Of a DNA stretch of 64,000 bases, positions 1,723 through 56,706 are shown piece after piece. The position numbers and the translations under genes are program-made. The notes under the pieces are model-generated. The model saw only the letters and a list, made by a program, of their open reading frames with translations, made no database searches and was not told the origin of the DNA. Every line of letters starts with the position of its first letter. Positions within the stretch are counted from its first letter, which is position 1. Location of the stretch: NCBI RefSeq assembly GCF_013122565.1, contig NZ_CP053258.1. One strand, given 5' to 3'. This DNA is from Escherichia coli (lineage in GTDB: Bacteria; Pseudomonadota; Gammaproteobacteria; Enterobacterales; Enterobacteriaceae).

Positions 1723-4479
1723 TTACCCGAGAATTTTGCTGGCTTCGCGCGCGACATTATCCATCTCGTCCAACAGTTCCAGCAGCTCCGGCTCCAAATC
1801 TTCTTCTTTAGTACCGCTACGTAGCTGTTGTTCGATCAGTTGGCAGAGATTCTTCATACGCGGCACACCGCTATAGCCGCAACTGCCATGCAGTTTATGA
1901 ATCAAATCAACCAGGCCTTCCGGGTTTTCTCCAACCAGCTGTTCCTCAACTTTGTTGCGAACTTCAGGCAGGAAATCGAGTAACATTTGCAGCATATCGC
2001 GCGCTAAATCGGTTTTTCCTGCTGCCTGGCGTAGTGCCAGTTGCCAGTCGAGGGTCGCATTCGGGTTCACCACAATTTCGTTGACTTCGGGCGTCACGAC
2101 GCGAGAGGAAATACCGCTGCCAGGCTTGTAGCGCAACAACAAATTATGCAATCGCTCTTCTTCAATCGGTTTCGCCAGATAATCGCTCATCCCTGCGCCA
2201 AGCAGCTTCTCTTTTTGCCCGGCCATTGCATGCGCCGTTACCGCGATAACCGGCGTTTGTTGCTGATGGGGGAGCTGGTGGATGAGCTCGCAGGCCCGAA
2301 TGCCATCCATGTCCGGCATTTGAATATCCATTAAGATCAAATCGAACGGCATCTGTTTCGCCCGTTCAACCGCCTGATGCCCGCTATCGCAAAGTTCCAC
2401 ATGTTGCACCATATCTTCCAGCAATGCGCCGATAAGTTTCAGGTTAGCGGGGTTGTCATCAACCGCCATGACTGTCATTGCCAGCTTACTTTCATCGGTT
2501 ACAGGCAAAAGCGTGTTTTGTTTGTGATGACAAAATTCCGTCAGGGCAGGCAACAGGCGCGTAGGTGTTAATGGTTTCAGCAGACACGCGCCGATACCAT
2601 CTTGCTTAAGTTTTTCAGCATTGACTTGTGCATGGCAAGGAAGTGCCAGCATCAGGAAATCGGTCATCGATACCGCTTTCGCTAATCGCTCATGTTGCAT
2701 TGTTAGCGGCTCGCGGAAGGTCACCGCGATGCCTAACAACATCATGTCGTAATGCGCGGGAGGCAGCGCGGAGAACGTTGGGCTATAAACCACTTCCAGC
2801 GGCGTTTCACTTAAAATATCCAGCGTGCATTGCGCTGCTGCGGAGTTTGGTTCGACATAGGCCAGGCGCTTACCTGCGAGGCACTGGGTGGATGGCCCTT
2901 CGATAATAATGTTCGGGTTCAGATCGAGATTAATGTGGAACCAGAAAGTTGAACCGCGATTTGGCTGGCTATGGAACGAAATATCGCCGCCCATTTCATT
3001 AACCAGTTTTTGTGTAATCACCAGCCCCAGCCCGGTGCCACCATGACGGCGGGAAATACTGGCATCAGCCTGTCGGAAGGCCTGGAATAAGCGCGATTGA
3101 TCGCGTTCAGGAATACCAATGCCGGTATCCCGAATCTGCACTTCAATCTGCACTTTGGTATTACTCAGCGCACGTTTTTCTACCAGAATATCAATGTTGC
3201 CATTCTCGGTGAATTTAATTGCATTCCCCACCAGGTTAGTGATGATTTGCTGTAATCGCAGTGGGTCGCCGATCACGTTATCAGGCACGTCGCTTTTAAT
3301 ATTGAGCGTCAGTTCCAACCCTTTATCGTGAGAAGAATGTGCCAGCAGAGTAACGACTTCATCCAGCGTGCTGCGTAGTGGGAATGGAATACTTTCCAGA
3401 ATCAGCTTACCTGCTTCCAGTTTCGAGAAGTCGAGAACATCATTAATAATTGCCAGCAAATTATTTGCTGAACGTTCAATCGTATTCAGGTGATCGCGCT
3501 GCGTTGGTGTTAATTCTGTTTTCAGTGTCAGGCGGGTAAAGCCAATAACACCATTCAGTGGTGTACGCAGCTCGTGTGACATATTTGCCAGAAACTCGGA
3601 TTTAATACGCGCCGCTTCCTGGGCGCGCTTTTTCGCCAGATCCAACTCAACGTTCTGAATTTCCATCTGCTCCAGCGTTTCACGCAGATCGGACGTCGCC
3701 TGGTCGATATTGTGCTGCATCTCTTCGTGATAAGCAGCCAGCGACATTGCCATCGAGTTGATACCGTTTTTCAGCATATCCAGCTCGCCGAGCATAAATC
3801 CTTCCACCCGGCTGTCGAGTTGCCCGCGACGGATGCGGTCGACGGTATTCACCATGTTGCGAATCGGACCGGTTACATCGCGCATTAAGCGCCAGCCAAA
3901 AATAAGCGCAATACCGATACAAAACAGCATCATCACGCTGGAAATAAAGATCTCTTTATATTGCTGCAAGCGAACCGATTTAAGATCCAGCTCAAGCGCA
4001 ATATATCCCAACATATTTTGACTATTTTTGGCATCGCTACTGGGCGATTCGTCGGGGGAATAACTCTCAGAAATAATCGGCGTGCGGAGGATCATAATAT
4101 CGCCGTCACGAGTGACAGTGAGCTGGCGAGGAAACGGCACGTTGCTGCCGAGCTGCATTGATGAGGGATCAAGATGAAAATTGGAGGTGACAAAGAGTCG
4201 GTTATTTTCATCATAAACCGAAATCGCGCGAACAATATCAGAATGGCGACGATGCAGTACGCTTATTAACTGACCGATAGATTCGCGATTTTGCAGGCTC
4301 ATGCCATATTCAGTAGAAACTGCAAGCGGCTCAATAATGCTGGCACCGGCATCTTCCAGTTGACGCTGCAAGTCGTTATAGCGATGCACGACGAAAAAGA
4401 TACTCAGCAATAAACCAATAAGGACGGTCGGTGCCAGGATCAGAATCATCATGCGTGCGCGCAGGCTGTAGTTGGTCAT
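1723..4479 (-). CDS. barA: Hybrid sensor histidine kinase BarA
   Basis: 918 aa ORF with TM N-terminus, HAMP, HisKA (SHELRTPLN), HATPase, receiver and HPt domains. Confidence 0.95.
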
Positions 4480-4535
4480 GGAGTTCCGTTATGGGACAAT
4501 TAAGGTCACACTGTTAAATTGAGAAAGTCTCGCCA

Positions 4536-5837
4536 ATGGCGCAATTCTACTCTGCAAAACGACGCACGACGACGCGTCAGATCATAACCGTTTCAGTCAA
4601 CGACCTCGACTCTTTTGGTCAGGGCGTGGCGCGACATAACGGCAAAACGCTATTTATCCCCGGATTATTACCGCAGGAAAACGCGGAAGTTACTGTTACT
4701 GAAGATAAAAAACAGTATGCCCGCGCTAAAGTCGTACGCCGGTTAAGCGATAACCCGGAACGCGAAACGCCACGCTGTCCTCATTTTGGCGTATGCGGCG
4801 GCTGTCAGCAACAACACGCCAGCGTGGATTTACAGCAGCGAAGCAAAAGTGCGGCACTCGCCCGATTAATGAAACACGAAGTCTCTGAAGTGATCGCCGA
4901 TGTTCCCTGGGGCTATCGCCGTCGCGCGCGTTTAAGTCTGAATTACTTACCGAAAACACAGCAACTTCAGATGGGGTTTCGCAAAGCGGGCTCCAGTGAC
5001 ATTGTCGACGTTAAACAATGCCCCATTTTAGTGCCCCAACTTGAAGCATTGCTGCCCAAAGTCAGGGCATGCCTGGGCAGCTTACAAGCTATGCGCCATC
5101 TTGGTCATGTTGAACTGGTACAGGCAACCAGCGGCACGCTGATGATTTTGCGCCATACCGCACCGCTAAGTTCGGCAGATCGCGAAAAACTGGAACGCTT
5201 TTCGCATTCTGAAGGCCTGGATCTGTATCTCGCCCCCGATAGTGAGATACTCGAAACCGTCTCTGGTGAGATGCCCTGGTATGACTCAAACGGGTTGCGC
5301 TTAACTTTTAGCCCGCGCGATTTTATTCAGGTCAATGCGGGTGTGAACCAAAAAATGGTAGCGCGTGCGTTGGAATGGCTGGATGTGCAACCTGAAGATC
5401 GCGTACTGGATCTGTTCTGCGGTATGGGCAACTTTACACTGCCATTGGCGACACAAGCTGCCAGTGTGGTCGGTGTAGAAGGTGTTCCGGCGCTGGTGGA
5501 AAAAGGCCAGCAGAATGCGCGTCTTAATGGCTTACAGAATGTGACGTTTTATCACGAAAATCTTGAAGAAGATGTCACAAAGCAGCCGTGGGCGAAAAAC
5601 GGCTTCGATAAAGTGTTGCTGGACCCTGCGCGAGCAGGTGCCGCAGGTGTTATGCAGCAAATTATAAAACTGGAACCTATTCGTATAGTTTATGTATCCT
5701 GTAACCCTGCAACGCTGGCTCGGGATAGCGAAGCGTTATTAAAAGCAGGATATACCATTGCGCGACTGGCGATGCTGGATATGTTCCCACACACGGGACA
5801 TCTGGAATCGATGGTACTTTTCTCGCGCGTTAAATAG
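4536..5837 (+). CDS. rlmD: 23S rRNA (uracil1939-C5)-methyltransferase RlmD (RumA)
   Basis: 433 aa; TRAM domain, Cys cluster ([11 protein letters not shown]) and SAM methyltransferase motifs; divergent from barA. Confidence 0.93.
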
Positions 5838-5884: not shown

Positions 5885-8119
5885 ATGGTTGCGGTAAGAA
5901 GTGCACATATCAATAAGGCTGGTGAATTTGATCCGGAAAAATGGATCGCAAGTCTGGGTATTACCAGCCAGAAGTCGTGTGAGTGCTTAGCCGAAACCTG
6001 GGCGTATTGTCTGCAACAGACGCAGGGGCATCCGGATGCCAGTCTGTTATTGTGGCGTGGTGTTGAGATGGTGGAGATCCTCTCGACATTAAGTATGGAC
6101 ATTGACACGCTGCGGGCGGCGCTGCTTTTCCCTCTGGCGGATGCCAACGTAGTCAGCGAAGATGTGCTGCGTGAGAGCGTCGGTAAGTCGGTCGTTAACC
6201 TTATTCACGGCGTGCGTGATATGGCGGCGATCCGCCAGCTGAAAGCGACGCACACTGATTCTGTTTCCTCCGAACAGGTCGATAACGTTCGCCGGATGTT
6301 ATTGGCGATGGTCGATGATTTTCGCTGCGTGGTCATCAAACTGGCGGAGCGTATTGCTCATCTGCGTGAAGTAAAAGATGCGCCGGAAGATGAACGCGTA
6401 CTGGCGGCAAAAGAGTGCACCAATATCTACGCGCCGTTGGCAAACCGTCTTGGGATTGGGCAACTGAAATGGGAGCTGGAAGATTACTGCTTCCGTTATC
6501 TCCACCCGACCGAATACAAACGCATCGCAAAACTGTTGCATGAACGCCGTCTCGACCGCGAACACTATATCGAAGAGTTTGTCGGTCATCTGCGCGCTGA
6601 GATGAAAGCTGAAGGCGTTAAAGCTGAAGTGTATGGTCGTCCGAAACACATCTACAGCATCTGGCGCAAAATGCAGAAAAAGAACCTCGCCTTCGATGAG
6701 CTGTTTGATGTGCGTGCGGTACGTATTGTCGCCGAGCGTTTACAGGATTGTTATGCCGCACTGGGGATAGTGCACACTCACTATCGCCACCTGCCGGATG
6801 AGTTTGACGATTATGTCGCTAACCCGAAACCAAACGGTTATCAGTCTATTCATACCGTGGTTCTGGGGCCGGGTGGAAAAACCGTTGAGATCCAAATCCG
6901 CACCAAACAGATGCATGAAGATGCAGAGTTGGGTGTTGCTGCGCACTGGAAATATAAAGAGGGCGCGGCAGCTGGCGGCGCACGTTCGGGACATGAAGAC
7001 CGGATTGCCTGGCTGCGTAAACTGATTGCGTGGCAGGAAGAGATGGCTGATTCCGGCGAAATGCTCGACGAAGTACGTAGTCAGGTCTTTGACGACCGGG
7101 TGTACGTCTTTACGCCGAAAGGTGATGTCGTTGATTTGCCTGCGGGATCAACGCCGCTGGACTTCGCTTACCACATCCACAGTGATGTCGGACACCGCTG
7201 CATCGGGGCAAAAATTGGCGGGCGCATTGTGCCGTTCACCTACCAGCTGCAGATGGGCGACCAGATTGAAATTATCACCCAGAAACAGCCGAACCCCAGC
7301 CGTGACTGGTTAAACCCAAACCTCGGTTACGTCACAACCAGCCGTGGGCGTTCGAAAATTCACGCCTGGTTCCGTAAACAGGACCGTGACAAAAACATTC
7401 TGGCTGGGCGGCAAATCCTTGACGACGAGCTGGAACATCTGGGGATCAGCCTGAAAGAAGCAGAAAAACATCTGCTGCCGCGTTACAACTTCAATGATGT
7501 CGACGAGTTGCTGGCGGCGATTGGTGGAGGGGATATCCGTCTCAATCAGATGGTAAACTTCCTGCAATCGCAATTTAATAAGCCGAGTGCCGAAGAGCAG
7601 GACGCCGCCGCGCTGAAGCAACTTCAGCAAAAAAGCTACACGCCGCAAAACCGCAGTAAAGATAACGGTCGTGTGGTGGTTGAAGGTGTCGGTAACCTGA
7701 TGCACCACATCGCGCGCTGCTGCCAGCCGATTCCTGGAGATGAGATTGTCGGCTTCATTACCCAGGGACGCGGTATTTCAGTACACCGCGCCGATTGCGA
7801 ACAACTGGCGGAACTGCGCTCCCATGCGCCAGAACGCATTGTTGACGCGGTATGGGGCGAGAGCTACTCCGCCGGATATTCGCTGGTGGTCCGCGTGGTG
7901 GCTAATGATCGTAGTGGGTTGTTACGTGATATCACGACCATTCTCGCCAATGAGAAAGTGAACGTGCTTGGCGTTGCCAGCCGTAGCGACACCAAACAGC
8001 AACTGGCGACCATCGACATGACCATTGAGATTTACAACCTGCAAGTGCTGGGTCGCGTGCTGGGTAAACTCAACCAGGTGCCGGATGTTATCGACGCGCG
8101 TCGGTTGCACGGGAGTTAG
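5885..8119 (+). CDS. relA: GTP pyrophosphokinase ((p)ppGpp synthetase I)
   Basis: 744 aa; ends ...VPDVIDARRLHGS, typical RelA. Confidence 0.96.
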   Translation: MVAVRSAHINKAGEFDPEKWIASLGITSQKSCECLAETWAYCLQQTQGHPDASLLLWRGVEMVEILSTLSMDIDTLRAALLFPLADANVVSEDVLRESVGKSVVNLIHGVRDMAAIRQLKATHTDSVSSEQVDNVRRMLLAMVDDFRCVVIKLAERIAHLREVKDAPEDERVLAAKECTNIYAPLANRLGIGQLKWELEDYCFRYLHPTEYKRIAKLLHERRLDREHYIEEFVGHLRAEMKAEGVKAEVYGRPKHIYSIWRKMQKKNLAFDELFDVRAVRIVAERLQDCYAALGIVHTHYRHLPDEFDDYVANPKPNGYQSIHTVVLGPGGKTVEIQIRTKQMHEDAELGVAAHWKYKEGAAAGGARSGHEDRIAWLRKLIAWQEEMADSGEMLDEVRSQVFDDRVYVFTPKGDVVDLPAGSTPLDFAYHIHSDVGHRCIGAKIGGRIVPFTYQLQMGDQIEIITQKQPNPSRDWLNPNLGYVTTSRGRSKIHAWFRKQDRDKNILAGRQILDDELEHLGISLKEAEKHLLPRYNFNDVDELLAAIGGGDIRLNQMVNFLQSQFNKPSAEEQDAAALKQLQQKSYTPQNRSKDNGRVVVEGVGNLMHHIARCCQPIPGDEIVGFITQGRGISVHRADCEQLAELRSHAPERIVDAVWGESYSAGYSLVVRVVANDRSGLLRDITTILANEKVNVLGVASRSDTKQQLATIDMTIEIYNLQVLGRVLGKLNQVPDVIDARRLHGS

Positions 8120-8214
8120 TCTTACATAGCTGGATATGGCGTCAGCCGTATCCAGCGATATCTTTTACTCGAAGGTATTACACCTGACAGATCCGCAATT
8201 TTCAGGACAATTCA

Positions 8215-9006
8215 ATGAATCAAATCGACCGTTTGCTCACCATCATGCAGCGTCTTCGCGACCCGGAAAACGGCTGCCCGTGGGATAAAGAGCAGACATT
8301 TGCAACCATTGCGCCTTACACCCTTGAAGAAACCTACGAAGTGCTGGACGCCATCGCCCGCGAAGACTTTGACGATCTGCGCGGTGAACTCGGCGATCTG
8401 CTGTTCCAGGTGGTGTTTTACGCACAAATGGCCCAGGAAGAAGGGCGCTTTGATTTTAATGATATTTGCGCCGCGATTAGCGATAAATTAGAGCGTCGCC
8501 ATCCGCATGTTTTTGCTGACAGTTCTGCCGGAAACAGCCGCGAAGTTCTCGCCCGTTGGGAGCAAATCAAAACCGAAGAGCGCGCGCAGAAAGCGCAGCA
8601 TTCGGCGCTGGACGATATTCCTCGTAGTTTACCAGCCTTAATGCGTGCGCAAAAAATCCAGAAACGTTGCGCCAACGTTGGCTTCGACTGGACGACGCTT
8701 GGCCCGGTGGTTGATAAAGTCTACGAAGAGATCGATGAGGTGATGTGCGAGGCACGGCAGGCTGTTATCGACCAGGCTAAACTGGAGGAGGAAATGGGGG
8801 ACCTGCTGTTTGCCACGGTCAATCTGGCTCGTCATTTAGGGACAAAAGCGGAAATCGCATTGCAAAAAGCGAACGAAAAATTCGAGCGTCGTTTTCGCGA
8901 AGTGGAGCGTATTGTTGCCGCGCGTGGACTGGAAATGACAGGTGTTGACCTCGAAACAATGGAAGAAGTCTGGCAACAGGTAAAACGGCAGGAAATTGAT
9001 CTCTAA
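8215..9006 (+). CDS. mazG: Nucleoside triphosphate pyrophosphohydrolase MazG
   Basis: 263 aa, tandem MazG domains; starts 95 bp after the relA stop. Confidence 0.94.
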   Translation: MNQIDRLLTIMQRLRDPENGCPWDKEQTFATIAPYTLEETYEVLDAIAREDFDDLRGELGDLLFQVVFYAQMAQEEGRFDFNDICAAISDKLERRHPHVFADSSAGNSREVLARWEQIKTEERAQKAQHSALDDIPRSLPALMRAQKIQKRCANVGFDWTTLGPVVDKVYEEIDEVMCEARQAVIDQAKLEEEMGDLLFATVNLARHLGTKAEIALQKANEKFERRFREVERIVAARGLEMTGVDLETMEEVWQQVKRQEIDL

Positions 9007-14160: not shown

Positions 14161-14490
14161 TTTATAAGTGTTATAAATGGGTGGAACCTGTAAAGAATTC
14201 CACTCATTTATATTGTTTGTCGCCTCTGAAAACCCCTCTTTTTTGCCCATCCTTGACTAATCATTATCATTCTCTACAAATTCTGTGGCGTTAATTTTTC
14301 GCTGGAGTGAAAATTATTGCGGTAAAGTTTGGTAGATTTTAGTTTGAATAGAGTTATTTTAAATATTTATCTTTTTAATCAATGGATTAAGTGCTCTTTA
14401 ACATAATGGATGTGTTGTTTGTGTGATCCTGTAAAGTTGTTAGATTGTGACTGGCTTAAAAAATCATTAATTAATAATAGGTTATGTTTA
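14161..14490 (+). promoter_or_regulatory. CRISPR leader (AT-rich), ending ...ctggcttaaaaaatcattaattaataataggttatgttta
   Basis: AT-rich block abutting the first repeat; the 3' end matches the E. coli type I-E leader terminus as I recall it. Confidence 0.7.
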
Positions 14491-14702
14491 GAGTTCCCCG
14501 CGCCAGCGGGGATAAACCGGCGATTATAGCGGACTTTCAAGAGAACAGTCTGAGTTCCCCGCGCCAGCGGGGATAAACCGTGGAAAATCACCGACAATAT
14601 TCGACATGGAGAGAGTTCCCCGCGCCAGCGAGGATAAACCGTTATCGGTCATCAACTATAGCGCGTATTTACTAAGTTCCCCGTTCCAACACGAATAATC
14701 CG
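14491..14702 (+). CDS. placeholder
   Basis: placeholder. Confidence 0.
14491..14702 (+). CRISPR. Type I-E CRISPR mini-array: 4 repeats (4th degenerate), 3 spacers of 32 bp
   Basis: Repeats GAGTTCCCCGCGCCAGCGGGGATAAACCG at 14491, 14552, 14613 (one G>A change) and a degenerate copy at 14674; AT-rich leader upstream. Confidence 0.93.
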
Positions 14703-14767
14703 ATAATATCGACGATACCAACCTAATATTATCAAATGTTAAAGGTTCTAATTTAAGAGGAAATTTA

Positions 14768-15031
14768 ATGTCTACGTTAATGGAAAAAGAATCTCTCCTG
14801 AATGGCGTGAGTCAAAATATTGCATTTTTATCAAATGTATCTGAAATGGTTTACAACTCTCAGAATGAAGAGTTGCAGTATGAAATATATGAGCTGGTGA
14901 GTTATAAAGATTATCTATACTCAACAGACCATGAACTTGTTGATTTTCAAGAGGGAGTATTACGATTTCAACAAATTAGAACAAAATACAGGCAAGAGCT
15001 AAAAGAACTCGGTTATCCTGTAGGTAATTAA
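14768..15031 (+). CDS. Hypothetical small protein (87 aa), no recognised family
   Basis: ORF preceded by AAGAGGA Shine-Dalgarno about 7 nt upstream of the ATG; AT-rich codon usage unlike flanking core genes. Confidence 0.5.
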   Translation: MSTLMEKESLLNGVSQNIAFLSNVSEMVYNSQNEELQYEIYELVSYKDYLYSTDHELVDFQEGVLRFQQIRTKYRQELKELGYPVGN

Positions 15032-15393
15032 GAAATATTGTCTTGATGGTGGGGAAACGTAATTTTTTATATTTTAAATATTAGATTAAAACAATAAATT
15101 AATATCATACTTTTATTTTATTCTCGAAAATGCCTAATTTCATTAAATACGTTGTCCTGTAAATGTAAACCGGGCATTTTTCCGCCCGGTCTCCCTCGAT
15201 TACGCTTCTGAGCAGGTCTCGAGCGAATTCACACTCTCCCGTTCAACTTGCATCACCAGTTGGTTAAATTCAGTCAAACTCTCGCTCATAATAATAATGT
15301 CGCAGTCGTCTTCCATGTCATGCCCCAGATATCCAGAACACAACACCCTAACATAGCGTTACTTAAGGGAAATTGACCGCCGACACACTCTTA

Positions 15394-20394: not shown

Positions 20395-20560
20395 ATATTG
20401 CCGGATAAATTAAACGCCTCTGTCAGAAATGATGGGGGCGTTTTTATTTTGCGAGCAGCATTCCTGATTTTAAACGTGAACGCCGCTGGAAGAATTATCA
20501 GGTATAGAATGGCGTCGGGTGCTTGAGGCTGTCTGGCGTTAAGCATTCGCGAGGTTCCAG

Positions 20561-20665
20561 ATGGACAAAAGCCCCAGGCGATATTTCTATCAACCTGAGG
20601 CTTACGTTCGAACCCAAACAATTCGAATGTTAGTCTCTTCTTTGCAGGGAGGCAAGACATGCTGA
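20561..20665 (+). CDS. mok-like leader ORF overlapping the hok start
   Basis: 34-codon ORF whose TGA overlaps the hok ATG (ATGCTGA) in another frame, the arrangement typical of hok/mok loci. Confidence 0.3.
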
Positions 20666-20811
20666 CAAAATATGCCCTTGTGGCAATCATCGTACTGTGT
20701 TGTACAGTACTGGGATTCACGCTGATGGTAGGCGACTCGTTGTGTGAGTTGAGTATCAGAGAACGTGGTATGGAGTTTAAGGCAGTTCTCGCTTACGAAT
20801 CGAAGAAGTAG
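20659..20811 (+). CDS. Hok/Gef-family type I toxin (50 aa small membrane protein)
   Basis: Hand translation [50 protein letters not shown] has the Hok pattern (TM helix, then L-C-E-hydrophobic, then a conserved AYES-type C-terminus); absent from the ORF track because under 60 aa. Confidence 0.75.
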
Positions 20812-21048: not shown

Positions 21049-22392
21049 GTGACTTTCTTTGATTTCTGGGGAAAAACCCGACGTGGCGAGAAAGAAGGGG
21101 GCGACGGCTATCACCTTCTTTGCTGGCATTCGCTGGATGTGGCCGCGATGGGCTATTTAATGGTTAAAAGAAATTGCTTCGGGCTGGCTGACTATTTTCG
21201 TCAATTAGGGATTTCTGACAAGGAACAGGCAGCTCAATTTTTCGCCTGGTTGCTGTGCTGGCACGATATTGGAAAATTTGCCCGCTCTTTTCAACAACTT
21301 TACCTGCCCCCTGAATTCAAGATTCAGGAAGGTGCCAGAAAAAATTACGAAAAAATCTCTCATTCAACGCTGGGCTACTGGTTGTGGAATCATTATTTAA
21401 GTGAATGTCAGGAGTTACTTCCTTCATCTTCGCTCTCTCCGCGCAAACTTAGGCGAGTGATAGAAATGTGGATGCCCGTGACGACAGGGCATCATGGTCG
21501 GCCCCCTGATCGTATGGATGAATTGGATAATTTTCTGCCTGAAGACAAAGCTGCAGCACGAGATTTTCTCCTTGAAATCAAACCACTGTTTCCGCTCATA
21601 GAGATCCCCGCATTCTGGGATGATGATGAGGGCATTGAACTTATAAAACACCTTTCCTGGTATATCTCTGCAACCGTCGTGCTCGCAGACTGGACGGGTT
21701 CGTCAACGCGATTTTTTCCACGCGTCGCACACCCAATGGATATTAAAGGTTACTGGCAGAAAACTTTAGTTCAGGCTCAAAATGCCTTAACCGTCTTTCC
21801 TCTAAAAGCAAAAGTCGCGCCTTTCACCGGAATTAATACGCTGTTTCCTTTTATTGAGAATCCGACACCGTTACAGCAAAAGGTGCTGGATCTGGATATC
21901 AGCCAGCCAGGGCCACAGTTATTTATTCTGGAAGATGTGACTGGCGCAGGTAAAACGGAAGCGGCGCTTATCCTGGCGCACAGGTTGATGGCTGCGGGTA
22001 AAGCGCAGGGTTTGTTTTTTGGCCTGCCAACAATGGCAACGGCCAATGCCATGTATGATCGGCTCGTCAAAACCTGGCTTTCTTTCTATTCGCCAGAATC
22101 TCGCCCCAGCCTGGTGCTGGCACACAGTGCCCGCACATTAATGGACCGCTTTAATGAATCACTCTGGTCCGGTGATTTAATCGGGTCAGAAGAACCGGAT
22201 GAACAAGCTTTCAGCCAGGGTTGTGCGGCCTGGTTTGCCGACAGTAACAAGAAGGCGTTGCTGGCTGAAATTGGCGTCGGCACCCTGGATCAGGCGATGA
22301 TGGCAGTGATGCCGTTTAAACATAATAATCTGCGGCTTCTGGGGCTGAGTAACAAAATCGTGTTCCCCGCGCCAGCGGGGATAAACCGATGA
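21049..22392 (+). pseudogene. cas3: Truncated cas3 (type I-E): HD nuclease domain and helicase motif I only, reading through into the first CRISPR repeat
   Basis: 447-codon ORF with GTG start; HD motif (HSLDV..WHDIGK) and Walker A (DVTGAGKTEA); the frame ends ...[18 protein letters not shown], where the last residues are translated repeat; no DExH motif II or C-terminal domain. Confidence 0.8.
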
Positions 22393-24586
22393 ATATTTGC
22401 GAATATTCGGCAGAAAGCGGGTGTTCCCCGCGCCAGCGGGGATAAACCGAGGTTGCGGCACAAATTGAGGTTGTCGCAAATGTGTTCCCCGCGCCAGCGG
22501 GGATAAACCGCCGACGCAGCAGCGGCAGCAGCGGCAGCAGCGGTGTTCCCCGCGCCAGCGGGGATAAACCGTGGATCAGTGCCGCGTTCTCTCTCCGTGT
22601 AATGTGTTCCCCGCGCCAGCGGGGATAAACCGATCGAGACGGGTACGCGTAAAGCCGAGCTGGCGTGTTCCCCGCGCCAGCGGGGATAAACCGCGATCGG
22701 TTAATTCTTCTACCTGCCTTTGCAGGTGTTCCCCGCGCCAGCGGGGATAAACCGCCCGCAATGCATTCGGGCAGTTCCTTGCCGGGGTGTTCCCCGCGCC
22801 AGCGGGGATAAACCGGAGATTGAGCCAGACGCCCGCCAGGTGTTACTGTGTTCCCCGCGCCAGCGGGGATAAACCGGAAGTAACACACCCAACCCAGGTT
22901 GCGCCAGAGTGTTCCCCGCGCCAGCGGGGATAAACCGCCTGTTTGAGCAGGCGCGAATGAACCGGACCAGTGTTCCCCGCGCCAGCGGGGATAAACCGTC
23001 AGGTAAGCCAGTGTTAGGGGCAATATAGCAGTGTTCCCCGCGCCAGCGGGGATAAACCGTCATCGGCTCGTTATTTGTAGCCAGCACTACGGTGTTCCCC
23101 GCGCCAGCGGGGATAAACCGCTTTATCAGATGGTAAAGGTGAATCAATATGAGTGTTCCCCGCGCCAGCGGGGATAAACCGATACCCCAGCGTTTCGTTA
23201 TATGACGGAAGATGTGTTCCCCGCGCCAGCGGGGATAAACCGTGCAACCAGGACGGCAGGACGCATCGCCAGATGTGTTCCCCGCGCCAGCGGGGATAAA
23301 CCGCACGTTATTATCCGATATTCACCGATAAGCGTGTGTTCCCCGCGCCAGCGGGGATAAACCGTCTGGGCGTAAACAGTCGGATAAATCGCGGGTGTGT
23401 TCCCCGCGCCAGCGGGGATAAACCGGCGGCGTGTGGGGTAACAATCAGGGAGAGAAAGTGTTCCCCGCGCCAGCGGGGATAAACCGGATAAATACAGTAT
23501 ATTCCCGCGCTCTGCTGGCGTGTTCCCCGCGCCAGCGGGGATAAACCGTAGATTTTGTCCGGCTCAGGTGCGCCGATGGTGTGTTCCCCGCGCCAGCGGG
23601 GATAAACCGATCGAGTACAACAAAAAATATACTGAGTGAGTGTGTTCCCCGCGCCAGCGGGGATAAACCGCTGTTTGCTCCTGCTGCTCATTTAGTGATT
23701 TAGTGTTCCCCGCGCCAGCGGGGATAAACCGCCTGTTCTTTTTTAGTCAACTTAACCATGCTCGTGTTCCCCGCGCCAGCGGGGATAAACCGTCTTTTTC
23801 GAGACTTGCAGCAACGCTCTGAAAGTGTTCCCCGCGCCAGCGGGGATAAACCGATCGAGTAGTTTTGAGGGTTGGTGAATTCAGGGTGTTCCCCGCGCCA
23901 GCGGGGATAAACCGCTTAATAAATGGACTTAAGCGCCCAGTATTGGGTGTTCCCCGCGCCAGCGGGGATAAACCGGGGAGGGCGAGCCGCCGTAGGTGCG
24001 GTGAGGGGTGTTCCCCGCGCCAGCGGGGATAAACCGACGCAGAAACTGGTTGAAATAGTTTACGGTGAGTGTTCCCCGCGCCAGCGGGGATAAACCGGCA
24101 GTAAATTATTTGACCTCGTTGATAATCCCGTGTTCCCCGCGCCAGCGGGGATAAACCGGTGGCGGTGTGATTGTGGGACTTATTGCCATCGTGTTCCCCG
24201 CGCCAGCGGGGATAAACCGGGCCTTTTCAGCAGATTAACCGCCGCGATTGCGTGTTCCCCGCGCCAGCGGGGATAAACCGAGAGATTTATATTCTTTCAA
24301 ACCGGATTATATCGTGTTCCCCGCGCCAGCGGGGATAAACCGCTTCAAGAATTTTTAAACGCTGGCTTCAAAATGTGTTCCCCGCGCCAGCGGGGATAAA
24401 CCGTCCCACGCGTGCCAGATGGCGCGTTTGATGGCGTGTTCCCCGCGCCAGCGGGGATAAACCGATGATAACGGCAAAGGGTACGCTACGTACAACGTGT
24501 TCCCCGCGCCAGCGGGGTTAAACTGTGATCCAGTGAGTACCGATCCGGGAACAACCGGTGTTCCTCGCATCAGCGGGGATAAACCG
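22360..24586 (+). CRISPR. Type I-E CRISPR array, 37 recognisable repeats and 36 spacers, no adjacent cas operon or leader
   Basis: 29-bp repeat GTGTTCCCCGCGCCAGCGGGGATAAACCG at 61-bp period from 22360; spacers 32 bp except two of 33 bp (after repeats 19 and 32); repeats 36 and 37 degenerate; a possible further decayed copy near 24619..24648. Confidence 0.97.
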
Positions 24587-56625: not shown

Positions 56626-56706
56626 GCCCGATGCGCTGCGCTTATCGGGCCTTCCTGGTTCGTGCGACACGTAGGCCGGATAAGGCGTTCACGCCGCATC
56701 CGGCAC
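56626..56706. repeat. Tandem REP elements between hycI and ascB
   Basis: gcccgatgcgctgcgcttatcgggcct followed by gtaggccggataaggcgttcacgccgcatccggca. Confidence 0.65.

Follow-up and report, generated by a model that had tools for sequence, protein, structure and literature searches.

Chromosomal toxin–antitoxin (TA) modules have been described as horizontally acquired units, consisting of a promoter and the TA genes and devoid of terminators, that have integrated between core genes (PMC5120126). The presence or absence of one such module, mazEF, between relA and mazG of Escherichia coli is already known and documented: in strains that lack it, such as UTI89, relA and mazG form an undisturbed bicistronic operon (Fraikin, Goormaghtigh, & Van Melderen, 2020, a review; PMC7167474), a point for which that review cites Fiedoruk et al. 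(2015) and Ramisetty and Santhosh (2016). This polymorphism has been used in the literature to argue that TA modules on the chromosome are accessory and horizontally acquired. It is not simply a matter of phylogroup, since the B2 strain NRG857c carries the classic mazEF pair (PMC7232551). Besides mazEF, parDE can occupy the relA–mazG region in Salmonella, and REP sequences fill the folA–apaH region that holds ccd in O157:H7 (PMC7167474). To this body of work, the present analysis adds the frequency of the mazEF-less arrangement (~18.5% of complete E. coli genomes), its exact junctions (53 bp vs. 689 bp), the identification of its principal hairpin as a REP element, and a probable polarity of the two alleles.

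The locus under study lies within a 64,000-nt stretch of an E. coli genome (hereafter the window; RefSeq assembly GCF_013122565.1, contig NZ_CP053258.1), where the gene order around the junction is barA (minus strand), rlmD, relA, mazG, pyrG, and eno. The relA gene (GTP diphosphokinase; 5885..8119, plus strand) is intact and encodes 744 aa, ending in a TAG stop codon at 8117–8119; its product matches the equivalog model NF008124 over its full length (1678 bits, residues 1–744 of 744) and is identical to the K-12 protein, RELA_ECOLI. The mazG gene (nucleoside triphosphate pyrophosphohydrolase; 8215..9006, plus strand) is likewise intact, with 263 aa and profile scores of 417 bits against TIGR00444 and 369 bits against NF007113, and its exact protein is on record for E. 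coli as QJU27224.1/WP_171460450.1. The two genes are separated by a 95-bp intergenic spacer (8120..8214, plus strand), an empty-site allele that lacks mazEF. A first-pass annotation of this DNA had placed the relA stop at 8119 and the mazG start at 8215, 95 bp apart, and the open reading frame (ORF) list and profile matches bear out each of these positions exactly. The relA-mazE-mazF-mazG order that it attributed to K-12 is seen in the annotated record of DH5alpha, a K-12 derivative, in which relA and mazG lie 731 bp apart, a distance composed of 77 bp, mazE, mazF, and 70 bp; both the 77-bp and 70-bp K-12 spacers are listed in PMC5120126.

The absence of MazE- and MazF-like ORFs from the window, with relA and mazG intact, was the central claim of that annotation, and it withstands tblastn searches run at deliberately loose settings (word size 2, E values as high as 100). 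Against all six frames of the whole 64-kb window, K-12 MazE and MazF return best E values of 1.1 and 2.7, respectively, which are noise. By the same searches, the window holds no ORF for a MazE (AbrB/SpoVT-type) antitoxin, nor is there an ORF in it for a MazF/PemK-fold endoribonuclease toxin, and no ORF of at least 40 aa is wholly contained in 8120–8214. A small ORF of 50 aa (8136–8288), which overlaps the mazG start out of frame, was considered and rejected as unsupported. At the nucleotide level, the sole blastn match of the K-12 cassette to the window is the 42 bp directly upstream of mazG, and the alignment shows no mazE promoter/operator directly 3′ of the relA stop, where K-12 homology ends. 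Judged by its coding content, the relA–mazG locus of the window would have no TA function.

Some features elsewhere in the window deserve mention in their own right. A sok antitoxin RNA (Rfam RF01794, 113 bits) is found at 20517–20674, downstream of cysH, at the position of an annotated Hok/Gef gene in E. coli MEI003; the window thus carries a type I TA locus despite the absence of mazEF. At 21049–24560 lies a decapitated type I-E CRISPR-Cas locus. Its 447-aa ORF matches Cas3 over the first half only (model positions 6–441 of 878) and leads directly into an I-E array of ~38 repeats with a 61-bp period (repeat GTGTTCCCCGCGCCAGCGGGGATAAACCG), which ends beside iap; compared with E. coli MEI003, the locus lacks casA-E, cas1, cas2, and the leader. 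A second, decaying I-E array of four repeats adjoins queE (14489–15288) and is followed by ~600 bp of AT-rich DNA with an 87-aa ORF (14769–15032) that has no MEI003 counterpart, and ~12 kb of MEI003 (ygcN to ygcE) is absent from the window at this site.

The alignment of the spacer to K-12, which the first-pass annotation had recommended for locating the boundaries, defines where the two alleles part. Homology to K-12 is interrupted immediately 3′ of the relA TAG and picks up again at 8173, and the intervening 53 bp of the window (8120..8172, plus strand) stand where K-12 has 689 bp, namely, the mazE promoter/operator, mazE, mazF, and ~28 bp after mazF. Megablast delimits the same empty-allele-specific segment: in mazEF-positive genomes the matching pieces stop at window position 8119 and restart at 8173, a right-hand limit that is uncertain by ~10–15 nt because similarity is weak there.

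How common this arrangement is can be gauged from the 5426 complete RefSeq E. coli genomes. Over 20 kb, the window shares ~98% identity with E. coli, and it falls below 99% against every one of the 5426. A 65-bp spacer probe (8116–8180) matches 1000 of these genomes, with 100% identity in 304 and 95–99% in another 696, always once, on the chromosome, and adjoining relA; a longer probe that spans the junction (8070–8265) is contiguous in 1006, and the empty-allele arrangement is accordingly present in ~18.5% of the sample. The K-12 cassette, at a coverage of at least 80%, occurs in 4416 genomes and is never plasmid-borne. Empty and occupied alleles together account for 5416 of the 5426, and the remainder include rearranged loci such as a cassette disrupted by IS1. 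Such a locus is found in E. coli SW07163 (locus extract 3598–4927), in which IS1 sits behind a slightly truncated mazE and the sequence beyond it, devoid of mazF and mazG, joins a pseudogene and fucO, an example of IS-mediated destruction of the locus.

Beyond E. coli, the MazG protein was searched against one genome per GTDB species, which yielded 80 Enterobacterales loci. In none of these 80 species representatives does MazE or MazF lie between relA and mazG, and the relA–mazG spacers are mostly 40–150 bp in length. A survey of related genomes had been suggested by the first-pass annotation, and its outcome is that short spacers without mazEF are the rule. The same spacer, at 94–95 bp, occurs in E. 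whittamii and in two divergent species representatives labeled "E. coli," and E. fergusonii carries it at exactly 95 bp. The type strain of E. albertii, NBRC 107761, is of a different kind: its 261-bp relA–mazG spacer (locus extract 2737–3000) is a mazEF scar. To the left of a BIME it retains ~30 nt corresponding to the K-12 mazE promoter region, and to the right 15 nt of mazF 3′ coding sequence and the post-mazF flank; the spacer also shows what appears to be a 45-bp deletion by slippage between direct repeats of AACTCA. The view that a lineage lacking mazEF is worth recording in itself does not survive these comparisons; such a lineage is ordinary, given its frequency in E. coli, its generality among the outgroups, and its earlier description in the literature.

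The spacer is nonetheless rich in predicted structure. As a whole it folds at −34.5 kcal/mol (z = −5.7), a value that none of 200 shuffles equaled, and it is predicted to form three hairpins. The first had been recorded in the first-pass annotation as a short hairpin; the hairpin is real, and the fold predicts it to be larger than described, with a 12-bp stem and a 4-nt GUCA loop (8129–8156). With its start 9 nt past the relA stop and its end 58 nt short of the mazG start codon, it is extragenic. Compared with the REP consensus GCCGGATGCGGCGTGAACGCCTTATCCGGC, as quoted in PMC12306157, it matches at 24 of 30 positions with two gaps. Its consensus score of 16 exceeds the maximum of 13 reached by shuffles (0/2000), and only four sites in the 64 kb score as well, the other three being canonical REP/BIME elements, including those at 1619–1648 and 56675–56704. 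A search of the window for canonical REPs that allowed three mismatches did not find the 8129–8156 hairpin.

The 53 bp of the window align with the orthologous Citrobacter spacers, which carry a canonical REP (GTAGGCCGGATAAGGCG...GCCGCCATCCGGCA) at the same position, followed by a second, inverted REP. More broadly, 28 of the 81 relA–mazG spacers examined contain a REP-like element. The tetranucleotide GTAG/CTAC that flanks the REP palindrome is the recognition motif of REP-associated transposases. It is not kept in the window, which reads CATAG where the Citrobacter orthologs have TGTAGG and E. whittamii has CGTAG, and its loss fits a decayed, immobile REP copy. On the combined strength of predicted fold, consensus match, and orthology, the hairpin (GCTGGATATGGCGTCAGCCGTATCCAGC; 8129..8156, minus strand in REP consensus orientation) is a decayed REP orthologous to the canonical REP/BIME of Citrobacter. 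One stem pair has changed from C-G to U-A between Escherichia lineages, a compensatory change that is probably a single event; this covariation is weak, and structural selection is not claimed from it. The second hairpin, a 9-bp stem predicted by the minimum free energy fold (8157..8179, plus strand), aligns with the second REP of the Citrobacter BIME and is possibly its decayed remnant. The third predicted hairpin (8183..8206, plus strand) overlaps the mazG Shine-Dalgarno sequence, and its segment, shared with K-12, is retained by mazEF-positive and mazEF-negative alleles alike. No structured RNA family was recognized in the spacer by Rfam at E up to 1.

These observations bear directly on a question that the first-pass annotation had left undecided, namely, whether mazEF was lost from this lineage or never gained. 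We consider it very probable that the 95-bp spacer is the native, ancestral relA–mazG region and that the site was never occupied by mazEF, and in that sense the question appears largely answered by comparative sequence data. The allele is read as an ancestral empty site because it bears no mazEF scar, unlike that of the E. albertii type strain, and the polarity follows from the identity of its hairpin as a decayed REP common to Citrobacter. On this reading, a mobile mazEF cassette, composed of the promoter/operator, mazE, and mazF with no terminator, would have been inserted right after the relA stop in K-12-type genomes as a 689-bp unit, displacing the 53 bp that include the REP.

A more intricate history is conceivable, in which the lineage once had mazEF and recombination across relA and mazG then imported an empty, REP-type allele. 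The flanks of the spacer are mosaic, with relA DNA 97.9–98.6% identical to that of E. coli and mazG at only 95.2–96.3%; RelA is identical to the K-12 protein, yet mazG reaches at most 96.3% identity to any E. coli compared. This mazG is 95.3% identical to that of E. fergusonii, whose relA stands at 87%, and the exact MazG protein of the window is on record in only two contigs, a pattern that suggests that the mazG segment was imported. Together with the mosaic flanks, the 100% match of the 65-bp spacer probe in 304 genomes means that an empty allele could be re-imported after an earlier occupation. The occurrence of both alleles within phylogroup B2, with UTI89 empty (PMC7167474) and NRG857c occupied (PMC7232551), further suggests that alleles move between backgrounds. 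Moreover, the E. albertii scar shows that the cassette was once present in at least one other Escherichia, and the history of the locus is thus not a single simple gain. There is, however, nothing to show directly that a recombination tract ends near the spacer, and vertical retention of the ancestral allele explains the pattern equally well; we therefore regard replacement of an occupied allele as improbable, if worth keeping in mind.

Far less credible is a secondary deletion, in which mazEF would have been excised so precisely as to leave a clean junction. Decay of the cassette is a known process, as the scar of E. albertii NBRC 107761 and the IS1 insertion with downstream deletion in E. 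coli SW07163 attest, but genuine scars retain remnants, whereas the window has neither mazE promoter nor mazF sequence, and excision could not regenerate 53 bp that contain a REP and are orthologous to the spacers of Citrobacter, E. fergusonii, and E. whittamii. This orthology of 8120–8172 to the outgroup spacers effectively refutes the deletion, the chance of which we put at next to nothing. The prospect that the assembler collapsed the region and dropped mazEF, which the first-pass annotation had raised against its own reading, found no support and is vanishingly small, as mazEF is a non-repetitive, single-copy sequence and the 95-bp junction recurs unchanged in ~1000 independent complete genomes as well as in a Logan read assembly, likewise independent, that contains the same MazG.

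In the empty allele, relA is followed by the REP stem-loop 9 nt past its stop, two further predicted hairpins, and the mazG ribosome-binding site, whose Shine-Dalgarno sequence AGGA (8204–8207) lies 7 nt before the ATG. Sigma-70-like matches in the spacer are no more frequent than in shuffles and offer no plausible mazG promoter; the only one, at 8184–8211, was rejected in this role, as transcription from it would start after the mazG ATG. Lacking a convincing promoter, mazG is probably transcribed by read-through from relA, as part of a two-gene operon. A terminator consensus scan flagged the REP hairpin (12 pairs, 7 of them G-C, tail GATATCTTTT), and the T-run after it is only 4 nt in length and starts 6 nt past the stem. 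The hairpin probably serves as a 3′-end stabilizer or a partial terminator/attenuator of the relA mRNA. An effect on translation has also been described, since a REP within 15 nt of a stop codon is reported to reduce translation of the upstream gene (Liang et al., 2015, as cited in PMC12306157); with a distance of 9 nt from the relA stop, the hairpin of the window falls inside this range.

The relA–mazG gap is a hotspot at which small toxin genes and other accessory DNA have been inserted. Superficieibacter sp. 1612_C1 carries parDE in the gap (locus extract 2174–2786; ParD, TIGR02606, 86 bits; ParE, PF05016, 1.5e-11). That of Buttiauxella gaviniae holds genes for Hcp (TssD), a DUF4225 protein, and a 109-aa membrane ORF (locus extract 1259–2927), and that of S. 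electus a 112-aa multi-pass membrane ORF (locus extract 2566–2904). Two Salmonella enterica locus extracts (1–2500) have fimbrial subunit and usher genes on the opposite strand upstream of mazG; with these genes in place of relA within the 2.5 kb upstream, the relA–mazG junction is interrupted by a fimbrial operon in these genomes. Relatives of MazF itself, with 71–73% amino-acid identity, are found on plasmids of Pantoea, Rahnella, Pectobacteriaceae, Citrobacter, and Providencia.

A broader and rather unlikely proposition, offered here as speculation, is that REP/BIME elements just 3′ of core genes are preferred landing pads for small toxin cassettes and that the insertion of mazEF, in displacing the REP 9 nt past the relA stop, changed relA mRNA stability or RelA translation. 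Candidate examples would be mazEF, parDE, and Hcp-DUF4225 at relA–mazG and ccdO157 at folA–apaH. Were it true, stringent-response dosage would differ systematically between mazEF-positive and mazEF-negative E. coli. Phenotypes ascribed to mazEF in K-12 cannot be taken to hold for E. coli at large.

Among known systems, the K-12 relA-mazE-mazF-mazG operon (the chpA locus) shares with the window relA, mazG, and the last 42 bp upstream of mazG, a stretch that includes the Shine-Dalgarno sequence and the third hairpin. The two differ in what lies between: the 689-bp cassette of K-12, made up of mazE, mazF, and the P2/P3 promoter that includes a palindromic operator, has as its counterpart in the window 53 bp bearing a REP hairpin. 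The hairpin in turn resembles enterobacterial REP/BIME elements in being an extragenic imperfect palindrome that matches the consensus and in occupying the position of the canonical REPs in Citrobacter and Enterobacter-group spacers, but the window copy is degenerate, with four substitutions and two single-base deletions. A parallel from the literature, at another locus, is ccdO157 at folA–apaH (Mine et al., 2009, as cited in PMC7167474), where a chromosomal type II TA module likewise stands between core genes and genomes without it carry REP sequences in the intergenic region; both the TA family and the locus are different. The closest counterparts remain the mazEF-less E. coli of the UTI89 type, in which mazG comes directly after relA and no TA genes intervene. 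At the locus itself, the window does not differ from them, and it is set apart by its flanking mazG, which is unusually divergent (at most 96.3% identity).
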